Notes under the pieces: generated by a model
Told to the model about the DNA's origin: nothing
Database searches by the model: none
What the model saw: the letters and a program-made list of their open reading frames with translations, nothing else
In this document: in pieces, positions 1,507 through 29,637 of the stretch
Numbering within the stretch: the first letter of the stretch is position 1
Layout of the letters: every line of letters starts with the position of its first letter
Made by a program: the position numbers and the translations under genes
Virus genome (UHGV): UHGV-0169625
Origin: a virus
Reading direction: 5' to 3' (one strand)
Length of the DNA stretch: 44,509 nucleotides

Positions 1507-2133
1507 TTAACGGCGACGACGTTCTCGGCGCGGTGCTTCATCTTCTTCTTCGTCTTCCAGGTCGTCGACACTTGCAGCTACTTTAGAACCGCCGAACGCT
1601 TTACCTTCGCCGACGTATTTAATAGCCAGCAGGTTAACGCCGAGGACTTTGTATTTCTGGCTGAACCAGATTTCAACGCTTACGTTAGCGACGCAGCCGC
1701 TGTAAACCTGTTCACCTTCAATCTGTTCCCCGTCTACGTTGAAGTCCTGTTCTACCTGAGTCTCACCCTTTTTAGAGGTTACGATCAGTGGCTGTTTCTG
1801 TGCCTTCGCTTTGAAGTAGAAGCCTTCCGGGAAGTCTTCAAACGGATTGTCGCGCTCGGCAATGTCTTTAATCGCGCATTTATCCATGTGCTTCCCTTCG
1901 CCGTAGTTGGACTTCATCCATTTCTCGGCAGCGGCTGCGCCTAACGCTTCTTCAACTACAGCGTAAACTGTGTCGTAGAGCGCGTCGATTTGCGCATGGT
2001 CAGACGACAGAATGATAGTCGCGCTGTACTGACCTTTAGTGATTGAGCCATCATCGTTTTCACGGTCTTTTTCGCGTTCGAATACGTTAACCCAAGCAGT
2101 GTTTACTTTACGCAGATTCAGTTTCAGTCCCAC
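1507..2133 (-). CDS. putative ssDNA-binding protein (T7 gp2.5-like architecture) with acidic then basic C-terminal tail
   Basis: 208-aa ORF, GTG start with GAGGG SD; C-terminus SVDDLEDEEEDEAPRRERRRR; sits in replication block; family assigned from recollection of pattern, not searched. Confidence 0.45.
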   Translation of the reverse strand: MGLKLNLRKVNTAWVNVFEREKDRENDDGSITKGQYSATIILSSDHAQIDALYDTVYAVVEEALGAAAAEKWMKSNYGEGKHMDKCAIKDIAERDNPFEDFPEGFYFKAKAQKQPLIVTSKKGETQVEQDFNVDGEQIEGEQVYSGCVANVSVEIWFSQKYKVLGVNLLAIKYVGEGKAFGGSKVAASVDDLEDEEEDEAPRRERRRR

Positions 2134-2196
2134 AGTTCAGCCCTCATTAAGTTTAGATTTTCAGTTTACTCCGGGAACTGCCCGGCCAGTGATTTA

Positions 2197-2225
2197 ACTA
2201 TAATAGTTAGCTATTCAGGTGTCAA
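2197..2225 (-). promoter_or_regulatory. sigma70-like promoter (leftward) with embedded palindromic operator
   Basis: minus strand TTGACA (2225-2220), 17-nt spacer, TATAGT (2202-2197); plus strand 2200-2217 reads ATAATAG-ttag-CTATTCA; about 57 nt upstream of the GTG start at 2133. Confidence 0.5.
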
Positions 2226-2229
2226 CACT

Positions 2230-2385
2230 TTATTTAAACGTTTCTTTTGTCATACGGATAATTTTCGCCGACTCGTCTCTAATTACCATACTGAATACAC
2301 GGTATACGGCTTTGCTCCGGCCTAGCTTTGCTCCGTTTCGGTGTTGTTGTAGATAGCTTTTATGCAGTTCTTGAATCGTGCTCAT
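2230..2385 (-). CDS. hypothetical small protein (51 aa)
   Basis: ATG at 2385 overlaps stop of upstream nuclease gene (ATGA), GGAGGA SD 7 nt upstream; track ORF 2230..2415 trimmed to this start. Confidence 0.4.
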   Translation of the reverse strand: MSTIQELHKSYLQQHRNGAKLGRSKAVYRVFSMVIRDESAKIIRMTKETFK

Positions 2386-3647
2386 TCCAAATCCTCCTCT
2401 GTTACCTGATTCCACTCAGGACGTTTGTCGTCCGCCGTTGCGACACATGGTGCACCCGGCTTACGTGTGATAAATGGCTCAAGCGCTGCCATCTCATCTG
2501 CCGAAAGAACTTTTGCCGCCTCCGTAGGGGACATCAATACCTCTTTTTTGAGAATGTCTCCGTGCGACACTTCAATCGCATCGGCGTCTTTCCACGCACG
2601 ATTACCAGGACGACCTTCTACCAGCTTGTACCCCGGTACTTTTTTACCGGAATGCAACGCAGCAGCCATCGCTTTCTCAACCTTGTCGATGTGCTGGCGC
2701 AACAACGGCAACTTCTCATACTCAGCTACAAGTTGCTCTGGCGTAAGTTCCAGTGCAAAGTCGTCTTCCAGTTCTTCCGCCAGTACATCGTTAACGGTTT
2801 TTGTACGCGCGGCGCACTGTTCCGAGAACCGACACCACTGACAACCGTCGACAGACGGCCGGAAGTCCGACGCTTTCAGGTTCTTCTTACCTCGGGAATA
2901 AGCATCAAGCGCTAACAGTGCTCGTTTCTGCGCGAACTTAGCGAACAGTTCCAGGCCTTCAACCGAGATGTCCCACTCCGACGCACCGCCCGCGTACGGC
3001 TGGAAGATGACCAGACGAACAGTCGTTATGTTATAACGTCTCTTGAGCCGGCGATAAACACCGAGAGCATAGAGCATAAGCTGCTTGTTTTCTTTCGCTT
3101 CGACACGATGCCGTCCAGTTTTCAGGTCGCCGATGATAAGCATGTGCTCGTCGGTGTTAGCCAGTTCCTGGACGGCAACAAGGTCAGCAGTTCCGAACGT
3201 CTCAACGCCTTCATACCCCGGATGCAACACCTCAGTAAGATTGACACGCATCTCGAGCTTCGCATAAGTCGCTACGTCGATAATCGGTTTGCAGTAGTCC
3301 GTGTACTTGCGCACCTGCTCAATCATGTCCGCCGTAATCAGTACCGCGCCTTTCATCGGACTGATTAGTGCCTTAATCTGACCTTTACCTTCATCCAGCA
3401 CGTAAGCGCCGACTTCACGCTCTAAAGGCAACGCAGTGCCTTTGATGTACTGGTTTAGATGGACCTCAGCTATGGTGTGCATGGCTGTACCTAATACAGC
3501 GGCTTTACCCGACGTGTTAGGAATATCTTTTTCACAAGCCAGAGATGCACTGCACGCCAGCCACTTTTTAGCGCCTGATGGTGACAGTAATGCGTGAACA
3601 TCGTTATTGCCACCGCGTTCCTTTAAAATCATACCCTGTTCTCCCAC
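2382..3647 (-). CDS. PD-(D/E)XK nuclease, Cas4/RecB-like (DUF2800-type) with 4-Cys cluster
   Basis: 421 aa; IIGDLKTGRHRVEAKENKQLMLYALG matches the D...ExK...QxxxY nuclease core; N-terminal Cys plus C-terminal CQWCRFSEQC resemble the Cas4 Fe-S cluster ligands; ends in acidic tail VTEEDLE. Confidence 0.6.
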   Translation of the reverse strand: MGEQGMILKERGGNNDVHALLSPSGAKKWLACSASLACEKDIPNTSGKAAVLGTAMHTIAEVHLNQYIKGTALPLEREVGAYVLDEGKGQIKALISPMKGAVLITADMIEQVRKYTDYCKPIIDVATYAKLEMRVNLTEVLHPGYEGVETFGTADLVAVQELANTDEHMLIIGDLKTGRHRVEAKENKQLMLYALGVYRRLKRRYNITTVRLVIFQPYAGGASEWDISVEGLELFAKFAQKRALLALDAYSRGKKNLKASDFRPSVDGCQWCRFSEQCAARTKTVNDVLAEELEDDFALELTPEQLVAEYEKLPLLRQHIDKVEKAMAAALHSGKKVPGYKLVEGRPGNRAWKDADAIEVSHGDILKKEVLMSPTEAAKVLSADEMAALEPFITRKPGAPCVATADDKRPEWNQVTEEDLE

Positions 3648-3901
3648 TGGTCAATTAAATGCCTGGTCTTGTGGTCGCAATGTAAGGCCCACCCATACAT
3701 CGACTCGAAGACATAAAAGTCAGGTTTGGCGAAAGTTGTGCGCTTAATCTGTGACACGTGACGGCCAATATCTTTATGCCGTGGTACTTTGCCTAAGTAC
3801 GCCATCTCTTCCATCTGGTGAGCACCGGACGGCGCACGCAATAGCCATAGCGCCTCTGTGTTATCCCGCCTGTCGACGGCGCGGTAGAGTTGGTAAATCA
3901 T
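3629..3901 (-). CDS. hypothetical protein (90 aa)
   Basis: track ORF in minus-strand operon, overlaps start of downstream nuclease gene by 19 nt; no recognisable motif. Confidence 0.35.
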   Translation of the reverse strand: MIYQLYRAVDRRDNTEALWLLRAPSGAHQMEEMAYLGKVPRHKDIGRHVSQIKRTTFAKPDFYVFESMYGWALHCDHKTRHLIDQWENRV

Positions 3902-4820: not shown

Positions 4821-7061
4821 CTATTCCAAATCCTCTTCTGTCACTACCAGCATTTCATTCGGTTCGTATATTGTCTTCGGTCTTAGTCTATCCCCTATTC
4901 TTTCAGGTATACGATACGTTCTCGGTACTACTTCGCCATTAGCATCACAGCCTAGCATTAGTTCACCATCTTTCAGCATTTTATCAAGATGGGTGTTAGT
5001 CACAGAAAAGTCACCGGAACGGGCCACTATCTGCTGCTGAGTAAAACCGCGACCTGTGTCATCTGACTGTTGCAGGTCTTCCAGTGCCGAAAGTATCGAC
5101 TCCTTCCTTACTTCATCCCTGCCGCGTTTAACTTCTTCCTTTACTTTTTGTTTACCTTCGTTAGTTAACCCTTCTTCCCGCTCCTTCTCCTCGTCAGTTT
5201 TGAACGGCTCGAAGCCCCACGGCATCAGAACAAGCGCCTTGTGTGGTTCCGGCAGGTCGAGGTTTACGATTGTGCCGTATTCCTCTGTGCTGCCCAGGAA
5301 CTCAACAGCACGGTACTCTTTCGGCGGTGGTGCTTCACGGAACTGTACAGACTCCAACACCATGCCAACCGTTTTCTGTTGAGGGCCGTGCTTAAATTTT
5401 GAGTGGTATACGTTTATCTGACGGTCGGTTGCGCGTTCAATTGTCAGTTCCACGTCGACCCCAGCATACAACGCCCCGCTGCCACGGGCTTTCTTTCCAC
5501 CTTTCGGTGTATGGTGGACAACACCCACCGCGGCTTTGGTTGCGTCGCGTACTTCTTTCAGGATGGCGATAACCTTACCCATGCCGATTGCCGTTGATGA
5601 ACTGTTCTCGTCGAACTTATCAATCGTCAGGGCCAGTGTCTGGTTGAGAGTATCGAACGCGACCATGCCGATGGGTTCGCCACCCGCAGTTTCTCGCATT
5701 AGCTTAATCAGGCTTTTCAGTTTGCCAACTTCGCCCATATCGATGACATGTACATAATATTTACCTTCCTCGCCGTATTTAGCCGCGAGTGCATCAATAC
5801 GGGTGCGTGTGGCAGCACCGCCCTCGCCGTCAATATAGAAATGGTGGCAACGCTGTGTATCAGCGCCGGCAAACCGGTACCCGGCGGCGCTCAGGTACAT
5901 CATCCCCAGCGTATAGAAGGATTTGTACGTGCCGGATTCCCCGACGATGTCCCAGATGCAATCCGAGGGCATGTACCCTTCAACGACGAAATCAGCCTTT
6001 ACCGGTTCAGGTAACTCGTCCTCCTCTGAGCCTTCGTCATCTTCCAGGTCGTCCAGGCTGCATGAAACGGACTCTCGCGCACCCCAACCGATAGCCTCTG
6101 CTACTTCACTGAATGGCAGCCCGGTCGCATCGCACGCATACTTCCACACCTCTTTCGGTGACATGCCTTCGGTTGCCGTAATGTCGGTGTCGTGAATCAT
6201 GGTTACGTTTGGCGCGGCGTAACCCTCTCGCGGAAAGCACAGCAGGAAATCATCCGGGCGTGGCGTCGGGTCGCTGTAGTTTTCTGCGTGTTCTGGTGTG
6301 GCAGGCATTTTAAGGCCGCGGGGTGTCATAATACCGCCATACTCGAATGCCAGTGCTTCAAACGCATCGGTAAACGCAGTGCGCAGTTCTTCCGGTATCT
6401 GGTAATCCGATGCGCTGCTAACGTCAACGGCGGGGATGCCTTCCAGCAGTTCTTCCGGGTCAATCAGGTCGTTGCGGCGCGACCAAATAACGGTAGAGCC
6501 AACCGGCGGCAGGTACATCGGCTGCGACAGAGTGAACCCGCTGCGGTCAGCGCCCATGCCTTTGAAGAAGTGCTCGAGCAATCCGTGGCGAACGCGGATG
6601 ATGTCGCCACCTTCGACCGGGCGACCAAGCGGCATAACGACGCGAAAGCGCGGTGACCCATCGGTATGTGATGCCGTGGTATAGAGGCACATGGCCAGGC
6701 GGCTGCGCTTAACCAGGTGCACAGCTTCCTGATACTCTTCCGGCGTTGCACTGTCGAAGTCCAGGTAGGCCAGTGATGATTTGCTTACAGAGGCGTCGCA
6801 GCGATAGAAGAAGCCTTTACGCGCTTGCTTAAAGTCCCCGGTTTCCTGGTCTTTTACGGTGCTGTGTGTTGAGTCGCACGCGGCTGTGATATAGCCGGGC
6901 GCGGTCTTAGGGTTAACCCCATCACGAACAGCATCGAGCGGCCGGATTAACTCTTTCAGGTCGTCCAGTGTTGCCGTGTGTGTGGTTCTGACGTTTATAT
7001 CCTTTTTCTCTGCCCGCGCGTTGCGACGAGACCACGAGTAGGATAAAATTACATCGGACAT
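4821..7061 (-). CDS. putative primase/replicative ATPase (prim-pol-like N-terminal domain plus P-loop-like ATPase domain)
   Basis: 746 aa; LAYLDFD (DxD) and TASHTDG resemble archaeo-eukaryotic primase motifs; central GESGTYKS P-loop-like and VHHTPKGG segments; ends in VTEEDLE; assignment by motif only. Confidence 0.5.
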   Translation of the reverse strand: MSDVILSYSWSRRNARAEKKDINVRTTHTATLDDLKELIRPLDAVRDGVNPKTAPGYITAACDSTHSTVKDQETGDFKQARKGFFYRCDASVSKSSLAYLDFDSATPEEYQEAVHLVKRSRLAMCLYTTASHTDGSPRFRVVMPLGRPVEGGDIIRVRHGLLEHFFKGMGADRSGFTLSQPMYLPPVGSTVIWSRRNDLIDPEELLEGIPAVDVSSASDYQIPEELRTAFTDAFEALAFEYGGIMTPRGLKMPATPEHAENYSDPTPRPDDFLLCFPREGYAAPNVTMIHDTDITATEGMSPKEVWKYACDATGLPFSEVAEAIGWGARESVSCSLDDLEDDEGSEEDELPEPVKADFVVEGYMPSDCIWDIVGESGTYKSFYTLGMMYLSAAGYRFAGADTQRCHHFYIDGEGGAATRTRIDALAAKYGEEGKYYVHVIDMGEVGKLKSLIKLMRETAGGEPIGMVAFDTLNQTLALTIDKFDENSSSTAIGMGKVIAILKEVRDATKAAVGVVHHTPKGGKKARGSGALYAGVDVELTIERATDRQINVYHSKFKHGPQQKTVGMVLESVQFREAPPPKEYRAVEFLGSTEEYGTIVNLDLPEPHKALVLMPWGFEPFKTDEEKEREEGLTNEGKQKVKEEVKRGRDEVRKESILSALEDLQQSDDTGRGFTQQQIVARSGDFSVTNTHLDKMLKDGELMLGCDANGEVVPRTYRIPERIGDRLRPKTIYEPNEMLVVTEEDLE

Positions 7062-26528: not shown

Positions 26529-26534
26529 AACTAA

Positions 26535-26556
26535 GGCCCCTTTCGGGGCCTTTTTC
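26535..26556. terminator. bidirectional intrinsic terminator
   Basis: AAGGCCCCTTTCGGGGCCTTTTT with A-run upstream and T-run downstream; lies between convergent genes. Confidence 0.75.
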
Positions 26557-26560
26557 TCAC

Positions 26561-26737
26561 TCACTCACTTTTGAATGGCATTTCGTAGAAGTTAGTTAAC
26601 TGCCCCCGGTCACTCCGTTCTGTCATTTCTTTCGAAGCCTCTTCCTTACTACCCACGGCGTAAATATCTACCCACTCGTCCCATTCTTTGTCGTATACGC
26701 GGATTACGTATATTGTTTTCATTACATTCTTACTCAT
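26561..26737 (-). CDS. hypothetical small protein (58 aa), antisense island
   Basis: ATG ORF on minus strand; start overlaps stop of 26730..26936 gene. Confidence 0.35.
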   Translation of the reverse strand: MSKNVMKTIYVIRVYDKEWDEWVDIYAVGSKEEASKEMTERSDRGQLTNFYEMPFKSE

Positions 26738-26936
26738 CAATATTACTCCTGTACTCCCGTAACTTCTCCAGACTTTCTATTGCTTCTGCTAAGTCGGTTC
26801 CTGTGTCTTTGTGTCCGCGAAGGCCCATACACAACAGCTTCTTCAATGCGTGCTGTAGCGCCGGGTCGCGTATATCGAAGGCGCGTAGCACATCATAAAC
26901 GTCTACTGTCATAGTGCTGCCGTGAGTGTTTGTCAT
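26730..26936 (-). CDS. hypothetical protein (68 aa), antisense island
   Basis: start trimmed to first ATG (26936); track shows GTG alternative at 26960. Confidence 0.4.
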   Translation of the reverse strand: MTNTHGSTMTVDVYDVLRAFDIRDPALQHALKKLLCMGLRGHKDTGTDLAEAIESLEKLREYRSNIDE

Positions 26937-26965
26937 TGTGCGGTTGTATTTATTTGTCACTGTTA

Positions 26966-27015
26966 ACTCTCTTAAATCTGGCTATGCCTGACTCTCTTAA
27001 ATCTGGCTATGCCTG
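26966..27015. repeat. perfect 25-bp tandem duplication (2 copies)
   Basis: ACTCTCTTAAATCTGGCTATGCCTG at 26966-26990 and again at 26991-27015; spans the stop codon of gene 26972..27175. Confidence 0.9.
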
Positions 27016-27175
27016 ACTCGTTAATGCTGCCTATTTCAAAGAAGCTGCGATATTTAGGCGAATACATTCTTACGTCGCCGTTCTCTAGGGTGACCCCTTC
27101 ATATACAGCGCCTACTTCGAATCCATTTTTCTCCGCGTACGGACTCACATCGGTGCATTCATACATATCTTTCAT
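26972..27175 (-). CDS. hypothetical protein (67 aa), antisense island
   Basis: track ORF; last 14 codons are encoded inside the tandem duplication. Confidence 0.4.
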   Translation of the reverse strand: MKDMYECTDVSPYAEKNGFEVGAVYEGVTLENGDVRMYSPKYRSFFEIGSINESGIARFKRVRHSQI

Positions 27176-28302
27176 CCCAGCATCTCCGGTGAAATAGTTA
27201 AACGTGCGACCTCGCCATATTCGGCACTATAGGTAATTACATTTGCGCTACGGCCTGACATCCATCCACCGCGCGAGGCGTAGGCGTCTTTAGCCGCCAG
27301 GGTGCGGTGTTGCTCAACAATCATGTTACGGCTTTCCACAATCTTCTGATGGTGGAGGTGGCCTACGTGGGCGTAGCTGTAAACGCTTTCGCCAAATGCT
27401 TTGCGGAACTTGGCAATCATAACCGGTTCGATAGCGTCGAATCGTGCCTTATGCCCGTGGTGAAAGAACAGCGTCGTTTTGCCGTGTTGCACCATCTTGT
27501 AAACATCTGGCGACGTATCGACGAACACACGAGGCTCATTGTCGTACAGCGTACTAAACATCTCAGCTAACCAAATCATTCCGCTTTCGTCGTGGTTTCC
27601 TTGCACGATAAGCAAGCGAACATTTTTATGCTTAACCAGCGCCATACCGACAACACGGCGGACCATACGAATCATGTAGCGGACAAGTTTCTGATAGCGA
27701 GTGTCCGCATCAAGGGCGTGACCGCTTGCAGGCGTAACGGCAACCAGACTGTCGAAGTGCGCGAAGTCGCCCAGCAGGTTAATAACTCCAGTTCCTGCAT
27801 CCGGCGCTTTCTGGAACGCCGCATCGAACCAGCGAGAAAACAGGTCTTCCGCAATCTTCATATCCCAGTCGTCGCCACTCTCGTCGGCCCAGGCCAGCAT
27901 ACCAAGATGGAAATCAGATACAGTGTAAAGATTGAGTAGTTTATCGTCACGTTTGGTGCGAACGGCTTTAACTGGTACAACGGGAGTAATCTCCGACTTC
28001 ATGCCTTCGATTACGGCTTTCATCAACTCGACCTGACGTTCAGCGTCAGTGTCTGTCTTAACCCATTGCAACTTAGTGTTGCCGAACTCGTCCACAAGCG
28101 ACGACGTTCCTTTAATCTTGTAGCCGTCCGGGACAAGATGGCTAACGTCACGACCGTGACCTACGCCTTTCTTCGCCAGCTTCGCTTTACGGATACGAAT
28201 AACGCGGTCTGAGATGCCGTATTTACGGGCGATGTCTACATTCTTCATCCCGGCGTTCAATTCTTCCTGTAACTGTTCGTCGGTTATTTTCTTCTGGGCC
28301 AT
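27172..28302 (-). CDS. HTH domain fused to calcineurin-like metallophosphoesterase
   Basis: 376 aa; N-terminal NVDIARKYGISDRVIRIRK (HTH); metallophosphatase motif series SDFHLG (D-x-H), GDFAHFD, GNHDE, HHGH, GHLHH. Confidence 0.6.
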   Translation of the reverse strand: MAQKKITDEQLQEELNAGMKNVDIARKYGISDRVIRIRKAKLAKKGVGHGRDVSHLVPDGYKIKGTSSLVDEFGNTKLQWVKTDTDAERQVELMKAVIEGMKSEITPVVPVKAVRTKRDDKLLNLYTVSDFHLGMLAWADESGDDWDMKIAEDLFSRWFDAAFQKAPDAGTGVINLLGDFAHFDSLVAVTPASGHALDADTRYQKLVRYMIRMVRRVVGMALVKHKNVRLLIVQGNHDESGMIWLAEMFSTLYDNEPRVFVDTSPDVYKMVQHGKTTLFFHHGHKARFDAIEPVMIAKFRKAFGESVYSYAHVGHLHHQKIVESRNMIVEQHRTLAAKDAYASRGGWMSGRSANVITYSAEYGEVARLTISPEMLG

Positions 28303-28367: not shown

Positions 28368-28694
28368 CTATTTACTTTCTGCGCCTATTGCCCATCCAGT
28401 CATTACCATTTGCAGACGGGTGGCTGTCAGTAGGCTGTAAAACGCGTCTCCGTTTTTCTCTACCGAACGTATTACCGTGTATGTTACGGCTTGCGGAGGC
28501 AGGCCCGATTTACCAACCTCTACGGCGGACTCGCACTCGCGAACTGTAGAGTCCTTAAATGCCTTTACAAGAGTAGGGTTGGCTTTCTCAAGCACACCAG
28601 AAGTCATAAGAACAGATTCACTAAATACCTGTTCGCACGGGGACCCAAAAGTAGCAAAAGACATAAACCCCAGAGCTAGTACTAATTTACGCAT
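28368..28694 (-). CDS. exported protein with signal peptide, first gene of antisense island
   Basis: 108 aa; MRKLVLALGFMSFATFG signal peptide; GAGGAA SD; about 22 nt downstream of leftward promoter. Confidence 0.5.
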   Translation of the reverse strand: MRKLVLALGFMSFATFGSPCEQVFSESVLMTSGVLEKANPTLVKAFKDSTVRECESAVEVGKSGLPPQAVTYTVIRSVEKNGDAFYSLLTATRLQMVMTGWAIGAESK

Positions 28695-28712: not shown

Positions 28713-28751
28713 TTACAAGTGAATAGTACCCTATTATATTGGGGTGCGCAA
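28713..28751. promoter_or_regulatory. overlapping divergent promoters sharing one palindromic operator
   Basis: leftward: TTGCGC (28751-28746), 17 nt, TACTAT (28728-28723); rightward: TTACAA (28713-28718), 16 nt, TATATT (28735-28740); 28720-28737 is the inverted copy of ATAATAG-N4-CTATTCA. Confidence 0.45.
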
Positions 28752-28858: not shown

Positions 28859-29275
28859 ATGAAACTTTCTGATTTTTATTTTGCCGACCGCCACGCTACT
28901 GGCACTAAAATGCCTATCCTTCTGCCGAGTGGTAAAGACTCCGGTGAATGGCTGCAGGTCATTGGCCCCGATTGTGATGCGGGTGTTCGTGCAGGCCGCG
29001 CCTACACAACGGCAATTCGACGCCTTACGGAAGAACTTGCGCCATTAGATAAAGAGTGTGAGGCGCTGAATAACTGGGCGCGCTATAACGATGAGAAGGG
29101 CTGGCGGGTGATGGACCTGAACAAGCAGCTCGCTGTCGAAATCGTCACCGGTTGGTCATTCGACGAGCCGTTCAGCAAAGAGGCGCTGGCTAACCTGTTC
29201 GACCAGTACAGCGGACTGGCAGAAGCCGTGGTTAAACACCACACCGATAGCCGCGAGAAACTCTCGGAAAAGTAA
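28859..29275 (+). CDS. tail assembly chaperone (G-like)
   Basis: 138 aa, AAAGGA SD, immediately upstream of tape measure; -1 frame stays open from 29251 to 29637. Confidence 0.6.
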   Translation: MKLSDFYFADRHATGTKMPILLPSGKDSGEWLQVIGPDCDAGVRAGRAYTTAIRRLTEELAPLDKECEALNNWARYNDEKGWRVMDLNKQLAVEIVTGWSFDEPFSKEALANLFDQYSGLAEAVVKHHTDSREKLSEK

Positions 29276-29637
29276 AAGCGCTGTATGAATTTGCGCAATG
29301 GTGCTTTGTCGACCGCCACAAACGTAAGCAATTCGACGACATCGCGGCAGGCCACCAGGCGGCTTTGATTGCAATGGGCGTGATTAAAGAACCGCAGATG
29401 AAAGAAGCGACGGGGCCAGAATGCCCCGTTTCTCTTATCGACGCGTTCGAGAAATACCGTGCCATTAAATTCCTACAGCGCGAAACAGATGATACTATCG
29501 TTATAATCCCGCGCGATGCGCTCAAATGGCAAGATTTGGTAGCGTTTCGTGATGTCGCCGGTTACGGCATAAGTTTGTTCGAGGCCGAGGTTATCATGGG
29601 CTTAGACGGAATATTTGAGGGCAGAGAAGATGGCTGA
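28859..29637 (+). CDS. predicted tail assembly chaperone -1 frameshift fusion (GT-like)
   Basis: -1 frame has its last stop at 29248-29250 and is open to 29637; candidate shift site CGGAAAAGTAA at the last sense codons of the zero frame; downstream ORF has only a TTG start. Confidence 0.4.

Follow-up and report, generated by a model that had tools for sequence, protein, structure and literature searches.

The 44,509-nucleotide viral stretch UHGV-0169625 (the window, always meant at its full length) carries at positions 27172-28302 of its minus strand a gene whose product joins an N-terminal helix-turn-helix (HTH) domain to a metallophosphoesterase (MPE) core. This protein is probably a DNA nuclease. 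Its active site is intact and conserved, its closest folds are nucleases, and its gene lies in a separate unit and is conserved in a wide range of phages; DNA as the substrate, early expression and the role in host-DNA degradation are inferred. The full explanation we favour, tentatively, is a stand-alone, HTH-tethered, binuclear-metal DNA nuclease that degrades host DNA. The role in particular, host-DNA breakdown combined with nucleotide salvage, is put forward with slightly more reserve.

In the proposed mechanism, the basic N-terminal HTH would tether the enzyme to double-stranded DNA, where phosphodiester bonds would be cut by the MPE core through two-metal chemistry, as in Mre11, SbcD and the PolD subunit DP1. 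The enzyme would act without an ATPase partner of the Rad50/SbcC type. Its most likely task would be to break down the DNA of the host (or other unprotected DNA) and thereby to supply nucleotides as well. This role is modelled by analogy on two unrelated stand-alone MPEs, T5 A1 and mycobacteriophage Gp48.

An intact gene of a widespread phage family

The gene is a complete open reading frame (ORF) of 376 amino acids on the minus strand with an ATG start, and its bounds are exactly those given in an earlier description made from the sequence alone (the sequence-only reading). A GAGGA Shine-Dalgarno lies just 5' of the ATG; at the other end, the stop codon shares the sequence ATGA with the start codon of the next ORF. 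Proteins with 100% identity are already present in public data, and the protein is 99.7% identical to one from Escherichia phage vB_EcoM_SHAK7693. The ORF is a real, intact gene in which a DNA-binding domain is fused to a two-metal phosphoesterase. Its parts are the following:

27172..28302, minus strand: complete ORF (ATG start, 376 amino acids) with HTH, beta-hairpin/helix and MPE core; PHROG 704 member
28171..28281, minus strand: three-helix HTH of the resolvase / LuxR-GerE / sigma region 4 type, residues 8-44
27994..28122, minus strand: conserved, family-specific beta-hairpin (residues 61-85) and helix (87-103), with G74 and W80 nearly invariant
27175..27948, minus strand: MPE catalytic core, residues 119-376
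27901..27918, minus strand: MPE motif I, SDFHLG, residues 129-134 (D130 and H132 invariant)
27751..27771, minus strand: MPE motif II, GDFAHFD, residues 178-184 (G178 and D179 invariant)
27586..27600, minus strand: MPE motif III, GNHDE, residues 235-239 (N236 and H237 invariant)
27451..27462, minus strand: MPE motif IV, HHGH, residues 281-284 (H282 invariant)
27349..27363, minus strand: MPE motif V, GHLHH, residues 314-318 (G314 and H317 invariant, H315 96% conserved)

The sequence-only reading had described an HTH followed by a complete MPE active site, and this architecture was confirmed: all five of its motifs were found, in the canonical order (DxH, GD, GNH[DE], H, GHxH). Conservation was scored in an alignment of 137 diverse family representatives with 33-50% identity to the query. 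Invariant throughout were D130, H132, G178, D179, N236, H237, H282, G314 and H317, the positions at which the MPE superfamily binds its metals and has its catalytic histidine. Because these ligand residues do not vary across the 137 homologues, the active site is judged from the alignment to be under strong purifying selection, and the protein is almost certainly an active enzyme. A conserved loop specific to this family follows motif II (H182, D184, T190, P191, L197, D198, D200, R202).

The Pfam domains expected from these motifs were seen, though only below their gathering scores (Metallophos 18.9 bits against 21.5, Metallophos_2 20.9 against 27), so that a search at gathering thresholds would miss the MPE domain. 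Since the sequence is this divergent, membership in the MPE superfamily rests on motifs and fold. The AlphaFold2 prediction from the 137-sequence alignment is confident (predicted local distance difference test, pLDDT, 93.8; predicted template modelling score, pTM, 0.82) and contains the beta-alpha-beta-alpha-beta sandwich of the superfamily. The model stops with the MPE core at residue 376 and has no C-terminal capping domain.

In the same model, three helices (residues 8-16, 21-28 and 32-44) form the N-terminal domain. The N-termini of other family members match Pfam Sigma70_r4_2 (2.4e-10), GerE (5.7e-09), HTH_23, HTH_28 and HTH_1. The domain is kept throughout the family, with 2-9% gaps across the first 60 residues of the alignment, and the N-terminal segments are basic (isoelectric points 10.1 and 9.1). 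It is also the least conserved part of the protein, with a mean column conservation of 0.37 compared with 0.5-0.65. Sequence matches and model together indicate a genuine HTH of the resolvase / LuxR-GerE / sigma-4 type, for which DNA binding is predicted. The name 'resolvase/terminase-type HTH' given to it earlier was thus right at the level of the fold, as judged by the three helices and the Pfam matches in relatives. Between the HTH and the MPE core lies the beta-hairpin/helix module, which had been overlooked; fold comparison of this module gave no specific structural match. Some longer homologues (e.g. of 410-432 amino acids) appear by eye to hold two tandem hairpin modules ('...PGFEIKRVSTQLGPSGELQREWVQQ...PEGHLIKGVSALIDSDGRTIQQWIKT...'), which suggests that the hairpin is an independent, repeatable unit.

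The protein belongs to a family that is already known, annotated and very widespread, and it is not a new kind of object. The hidden Markov model of PHROG 704, 'DNA repair exonuclease', matched residues 3-375 (373 of the 376) along profile positions 1-389 of 390 with an E-value of 2.5e-165; the name of this PHROG is a prediction. The sequence-only reading had implied novelty, which does not hold for a family that already has a PHROG entry (704) and carries annotations in hundreds of GenBank genomes. By tblastn, the protein was found in 2,053 of 50,697 phage records, 1,959 of them with at least 80% coverage, and the hosts include Escherichia, Klebsiella, Salmonella, Vibrio, Campylobacter, Flavobacterium, Rhodobacter and Ruegeria. 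An exhaustive search with HMMER, run over 1.84 billion representatives (50% identity), returned 4,582 clusters at E<=1e-3 and 1,131 at E<=1e-30, nearly all of them 360-420 amino acids long. Guernseyvirinae, Drexlerviridae (T1 among them) and many other phages have kept the gene. Gp16 of coliphage T1 (YP_003929.1) is 46% identical from end to end and has the same architecture of HTH, hairpin and MPE core. In GenBank, homologues are labelled 'DNA repair exonuclease', 'metallophosphoesterase', 'calcineurin-like phosphoesterase', 'DNA polymerase II small subunit', 'phosphatase' or 'transcriptional regulator'. Gp66 of phage TLS ('proof-reading exonuclease') probably belongs to the same family, a link made by its name in PMC11447400.

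The window itself is a siphophage of the genus Kagunavirus (Guernseyvirinae), and it represents essentially the whole genome of about 44.5 kb. This assignment follows from a DNA match and from gene order: the 3.2 kb around the gene show 92-93% DNA identity to the Kagunavirus Escherichia phages fFiEco02, SZH-1 and BASEL Bas70-76, with 452 phage records matching this region, and the order of genes in the window parallels that of the annotated Bas70 genome.

Two relatives deserve separate mention. In vB_Eco_AMO_3701M (PQ474795.1) the ortholog (2594-3727 of the compared locus) is broken at motif IV, reading '...TTLFMHTRT*MRDS...' for '...TTLFFHHGHKARFD...', and is annotated as two coding sequences, the second as 'transcriptional regulator'. 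Either this is a sequencing error or the gene is dispensable in culture. The copy in Jerseyvirus VSe101 (55% identity) was considered as a case of diversifying selection or allele replacement, an idea that was rejected, as the copy is no more diverged than the products of the flanking genes (46-83%).

Relation to other metallophosphoesterases

Direct searches of PDB sequences with the protein and with the 137-sequence profile gave nothing significant, and fold comparison was therefore needed. The best matches of the model were DP1, SbcD and Mre11. Lower scores were obtained for LpxH (13.9), MJ0936 (13.5) and YfcE (12.9), followed by Rv0805 and GpdQ (12.2), with protein phosphatases at about 9. 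In short, the motifs and the modelled fold suggest that the protein works like a small enzyme of the Mre11/SbcD/DP1 type while being a member of none of these families.

Mre11 and SbcD share 13-17% identity with the protein, which matched no NCBIfam model for either, and the family profile reached SbcD and Mre11 among PDB sequences only at E-values of 0.5-0.75. Of the families named in the sequence-only reading, SbcD and CpdA match by no NCBIfam model, and SbcD is among the best in the fold comparison. Unlike Mre11 and SbcD, the protein has no capping domain and carries an N-terminal HTH instead. No ATPase of the Rad50/SbcC type is annotated in the near-identical Bas70 or found among the recurrent neighbours of 77 loci, the ORFs of the window not having each been scanned. 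The small subunit DP1 of archaeal PolD, a 3'-5' proofreading exonuclease (PDB 5ihe), is 12% identical; it differs in having an OB-fold domain and a catalytic partner, DP2, neither of which is present here. The phage's own polymerase would be the 746-amino-acid ORF at 4821-7061, as we infer from synteny with the annotated DNA polymerase of Bas70.

Two stand-alone phage MPEs have been tied to host DNA degradation. T5 A1 is a predicted metallophosphatase whose structure resembles nucleases of double-strand-break repair and polymerase proofreading (bioRxiv 10.64898/2026.04.02.716235). Among the pre-early genes, it alone was reported to be both necessary and sufficient for degrading host DNA, and its expression by itself in cells led to loss of host DNA, its nuclease activity being predicted (same preprint). 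Like the protein studied here, T5 A1 stands alone; it differs in its length of 556 amino acids, in an unrelated N-terminal domain of about 290 residues, and in matching PHROG 1745 only and not 704. Specific homology between the two was considered and rejected: a single sequence and a 10-sequence profile aligned over only 19-28 columns near motif III, with probabilities of 17-40%, the profile-profile comparison with hhalign covering 28 columns around motif III at 40%. A pattern 'NHDxxxSxWL', extending beyond the generic GNHD, is common to residues 228-258 of the protein (27529-27621) and residues 388-417 of T5 A1; this likeness may be a shared substrate-binding feature or chance. T5 A2, a separate DNA-binding protein of T5, showed no detectable similarity to the HTH region. 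The second case is Gp48 of mycobacteriophage A10ZJ24, a cluster A MPE that is made early and is active both as a phosphodiesterase and as a DNase; DNA, including that of the host, is degraded by it in vitro and in vivo (PMC12287305). The motif I aspartate of Gp48 is residue 10, so that it has no N-terminal HTH, a comparison made by motif position.

T1 gp16 and the other members of PHROG 704 show no structural difference from the protein. What differs is the place of the gene. In Guernseyvirinae it lies in a minus-strand unit inside the tail module, whereas the T1 copy is found between dam and the lysis genes.

The minus-strand unit and the genomic context

The MPE gene is the second of five minus-strand ORFs (108 amino acids, MPE, 67, 76 and 59 amino acids), which are inserted as a unit between the plus-strand tail-tube and tail-assembly-chaperone genes. 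The features of this unit, and a recombination module elsewhere in the window, are as follows:

28368..28694, minus strand: first gene of the unit, 108 amino acids, with a hydrophobic, signal-like N-terminus (MRKLVLALGFMSFATFGSPC...); phrog_14165
26561..27175, minus strand: three small downstream ORFs of 67, 76 and 59 amino acids in a variable slot, the first beginning at the ATGA overlap with the MPE stop codon
26533..26552, unstranded: GC-rich hairpin, perfect over 8 bp (AAGGCCCCGAAAGGGGCCTT), between the end of the converging tail-tube gene (26528) and the end of the minus-strand unit (26561)
28733..28738, minus strand: perfect TATAAT hexamer, a candidate promoter with a weak -35, 38 nt upstream of the 108-amino-acid ORF in the divergent intergenic region
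1507-3647, minus strand: recombination module with a DUF2800/PD-(D/E)XK exonuclease (421 amino acids, phrog_69) and a Gp2.5-like single-strand-binding/annealing protein (208 amino acids, phrog_112)

The hairpin at 26533-26552 is probably a terminator that closes the unit and acts in both directions. With its own minus-strand arrangement, this hairpin at its end and a divergent intergenic region with a TATAAT hexamer ahead of it, the unit is predicted to be transcribed independently of the late operon. As it runs opposite to the late structural genes, the MPE is probably made before them or independently of them. A scan for promoter consensus sequences did not call the hexamer and returned only weak candidates nearby. 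The term 'accessory island', used for this region in the sequence-only reading, applies to the small ORFs around the gene, which vary between relatives, and does not apply to the MPE gene itself, which is widely conserved.

At the place of the 108-amino-acid gene, Jerseyvirus VSe101 has an ORF annotated as superinfection immunity protein. The 76-amino-acid ORF (26730-26960, minus strand) matches only the C-terminal third of phrog_2452 (150-220 of 235) and of phrog_17613, 'ATPase' (171-237 of 246), and is perhaps a stand-alone version of a domain that normally forms part of a larger protein. Among the products of the downstream stretch, one GenBank relative has a 'DUF3310 protein', possibly the same ORF. 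In fFiEco02 (5375-6007 of the compared locus), NTEC3, SCS92 and 590B, an HNH homing endonuclease lies between the tail-tube gene and the minus-strand unit; the window has none there. Past the divergent promoter region, the two plus-strand ORFs at 28859-29637 (138 and 90 amino acids) are the tail assembly chaperone pair, which in fFiEco02 is annotated with a programmed frameshift product.

In other phages, the gene occupies various places. In T1 and JK16 it follows the genes for a helicase, a VRR-NUC protein and Dam and precedes the lysis genes; in Dhillonvirus EP23 it comes after the lysis genes. It lies between a replication O-like gene and a helicase gene in the temperate phage mEp044, in a nin-like region in an Aeromonas phage, and beside thymidylate synthase in an N4-like Ruegeria phage. 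The DNA-metabolism context in T1, JK16 and mEp044 was counted in favour of a nuclease. Neighbours were clustered for the 77 IMG/VR loci, which fall into 19 groups at 70% identity. The commonest were lysozymes and HNH endonucleases, whose presence is probably incidental. In three Guernseyvirinae groups, a HAD phosphatase of the 'polynucleotide kinase' type (phrog_415, 6e-66) lies downstream of the MPE at a distance of at most two genes; in two of these three groups a deoxynucleoside monophosphate (dNMP) kinase (phrog_139, 1.2e-40) comes next. Of 19 close relatives, 8 have this cassette in the slot that follows the MPE gene. The window has no copy of phrog_415 or phrog_139 anywhere and has the three small ORFs in the slot instead. 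The linkage to a HAD phosphatase and a dNMP kinase fits nucleotide salvage.

Host DNA or another substrate

A DNA nuclease is favoured over an enzyme acting on cyclic nucleotides because the fused DNA-binding domain fits a DNA substrate and because the two phage MPEs described above are tied to host DNA degradation. For the host genome as the target, T1 is of particular interest. Both T1 and TLS break down the genome of the host, whose nucleotides they reuse; according to the 2024 re-annotation of TLS, the early gene products responsible are unidentified (PMC11447400). T1 gp16 is therefore a natural candidate. That its family is the long-sought enzyme that degrades the host chromosome in T1-type infections is a possibility that we regard as rather doubtful.

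Several points weigh against the breakdown of host DNA by this protein. The precedent of T5 A1 is an analogy and not a homology. Early timing of the unit is suggested by gene orientation and a weak promoter match only. Across the 77 IMG/VR loci (19 lineage groups) there is no obligate partner gene and no conserved neighbour. The HAD phosphatase and dNMP kinase were considered as a general linkage and rejected as such: the association is real, but it is confined to the Guernseyvirinae subfamily and absent from the window. In the literature on the PHROG 704 family and on MPEs of Kagunavirus, Guernseyvirinae and Drexlerviridae, we found no functional experiment. A 2026 paper on STAND receptors in which T1 was used does not mention the MPE protein. 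Finally, the family also occurs in temperate phages with integrases and repressors (mEp044, Sulfitobacter NYA-2014a). Since wholesale destruction of host DNA is not expected in temperate phages, their members speak for a role in replication or recombination.

Such a role is the main rival, though an unlikely one in our estimate. The protein would be an end-processing exonuclease acting on the phage's own DNA, a minimal repair or proofreading enzyme like Mre11/SbcD or DP1 that is recruited by its HTH and, while concatemers form or DNA is replicated, trims ends, hairpins or 3' mismatches. The database name of PHROG 704 and the three best folds agree with it, as do the helicase, VRR-NUC and Dam neighbours in T1-like phages and the O-like gene and helicase in mEp044, and it accommodates the temperate phages better than host destruction does. 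However, no partner of the Rad50/SbcC type is annotated in the near-identical genome, and a capping domain is missing. Because the phage already encodes a separate module with a PD-(D/E)XK exonuclease and an annealing protein, it has less need of a second recombination exonuclease. In Guernseyvirinae, moreover, the gene lies within the tail module among small variable ORFs, which is not a replication context, and the copy of vB_Eco_AMO_3701M, if its break at motif IV is a real mutation, would show the gene to be dispensable.

The sequence-only reading had named two roles, a 'DNA-guided nuclease' and an enzyme that degrades cyclic nucleotide messengers of host defence, and had held that the sequence alone cannot fix function or substrate. 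The last statement is correct. On the nuclease side, which we favour, 'DNA-guided' is the wrong term; the sequence supports 'HTH-tethered'. The anti-defence side found no specific support. As a phosphodiesterase that destroys the cyclic nucleotide or oligonucleotide messengers of CBASS, Pycsar, type III CRISPR or Thoeris-like systems, the protein would fit its separate transcription unit, which also contains variable small ORFs, as is typical of counter-defence loci. We nevertheless consider this very unlikely. The class III cyclic-nucleotide phosphodiesterases (CpdA/Icc, Rv0805) have no HTH and scored lower in the structural comparison than the nucleases, which also align over more residues. 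No NCBIfam model, CpdA included, matched past chance-level scores, and PADLOC gave no matches for the MPE protein and its four neighbours. A conserved DNA-binding HTH would have no role in such an enzyme. The family is near-universal in T1-like and Jersey-like phages with a fixed architecture, unlike anti-defence genes, which are patchy. The anti-CBASS and anti-Pycsar enzymes known so far have different folds, that of a 2H phosphoesterase in Acb1 and that of a metallo-beta-lactamase in Apyc1.

It is even less probable that the protein acts mainly in transcription control, for instance as an activator of middle or late genes, with the LuxR/sigma-4-like HTH binding promoters and the MPE serving as a sensor or accessory enzyme. 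The HTH does resemble LuxR/NarL and sigma region 4, there is a weak match to phrog_836, 'late transcriptional activator' (E 9e-4), some GenBank records say 'transcriptional regulator', and in T1-like phages and Dhillonvirus the gene is directly beside the lysis cassette at the early/late boundary. This adjacency is not kept in other lineages, however, and conservation is complete at the catalytic residues but lowest in the HTH, which marks the enzyme as the selected function.

Equally improbable is the healing of RNA or DNA ends by a 2',3'-cyclic phosphodiesterase or phosphomonoesterase similar to the MPE domain of Clostridium thermocellum Pnkp, which, with the neighbouring HAD 'polynucleotide kinase' phosphatase, would mend the cuts made in nucleic acids by anticodon nucleases of the host or similar defences: MPE domains do perform end-healing in bacterial Pnkp, and the next gene in relatives is annotated as a polynucleotide kinase/3'-phosphatase (phrog_415), but the adjoining kinase matches dNMP kinase (phrog_139) and not polynucleotide kinase, there is no ligase nearby, and the cassette is absent from the window and most lineages.

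The gene in the window is itself an ordinary, already annotated family member, and the value of the finding is that it points to T1 gp16 and its Kagunavirus counterpart. The PHROG 704 family, which includes a protein of the classic coliphage T1, is among the most widespread phage enzymes without an experimental function, and stand-alone MPEs have now been shown or proposed to degrade host DNA in a mycobacteriophage and in T5. If T1 gp16 and the Kagunavirus protein do likewise, a decades-old gap would be closed. If true, this would also show where the degradation products sensed by newly described defence systems, m6-dAMP for example, come from; one of these systems was reported to be active against the T1-like phage Bas12.

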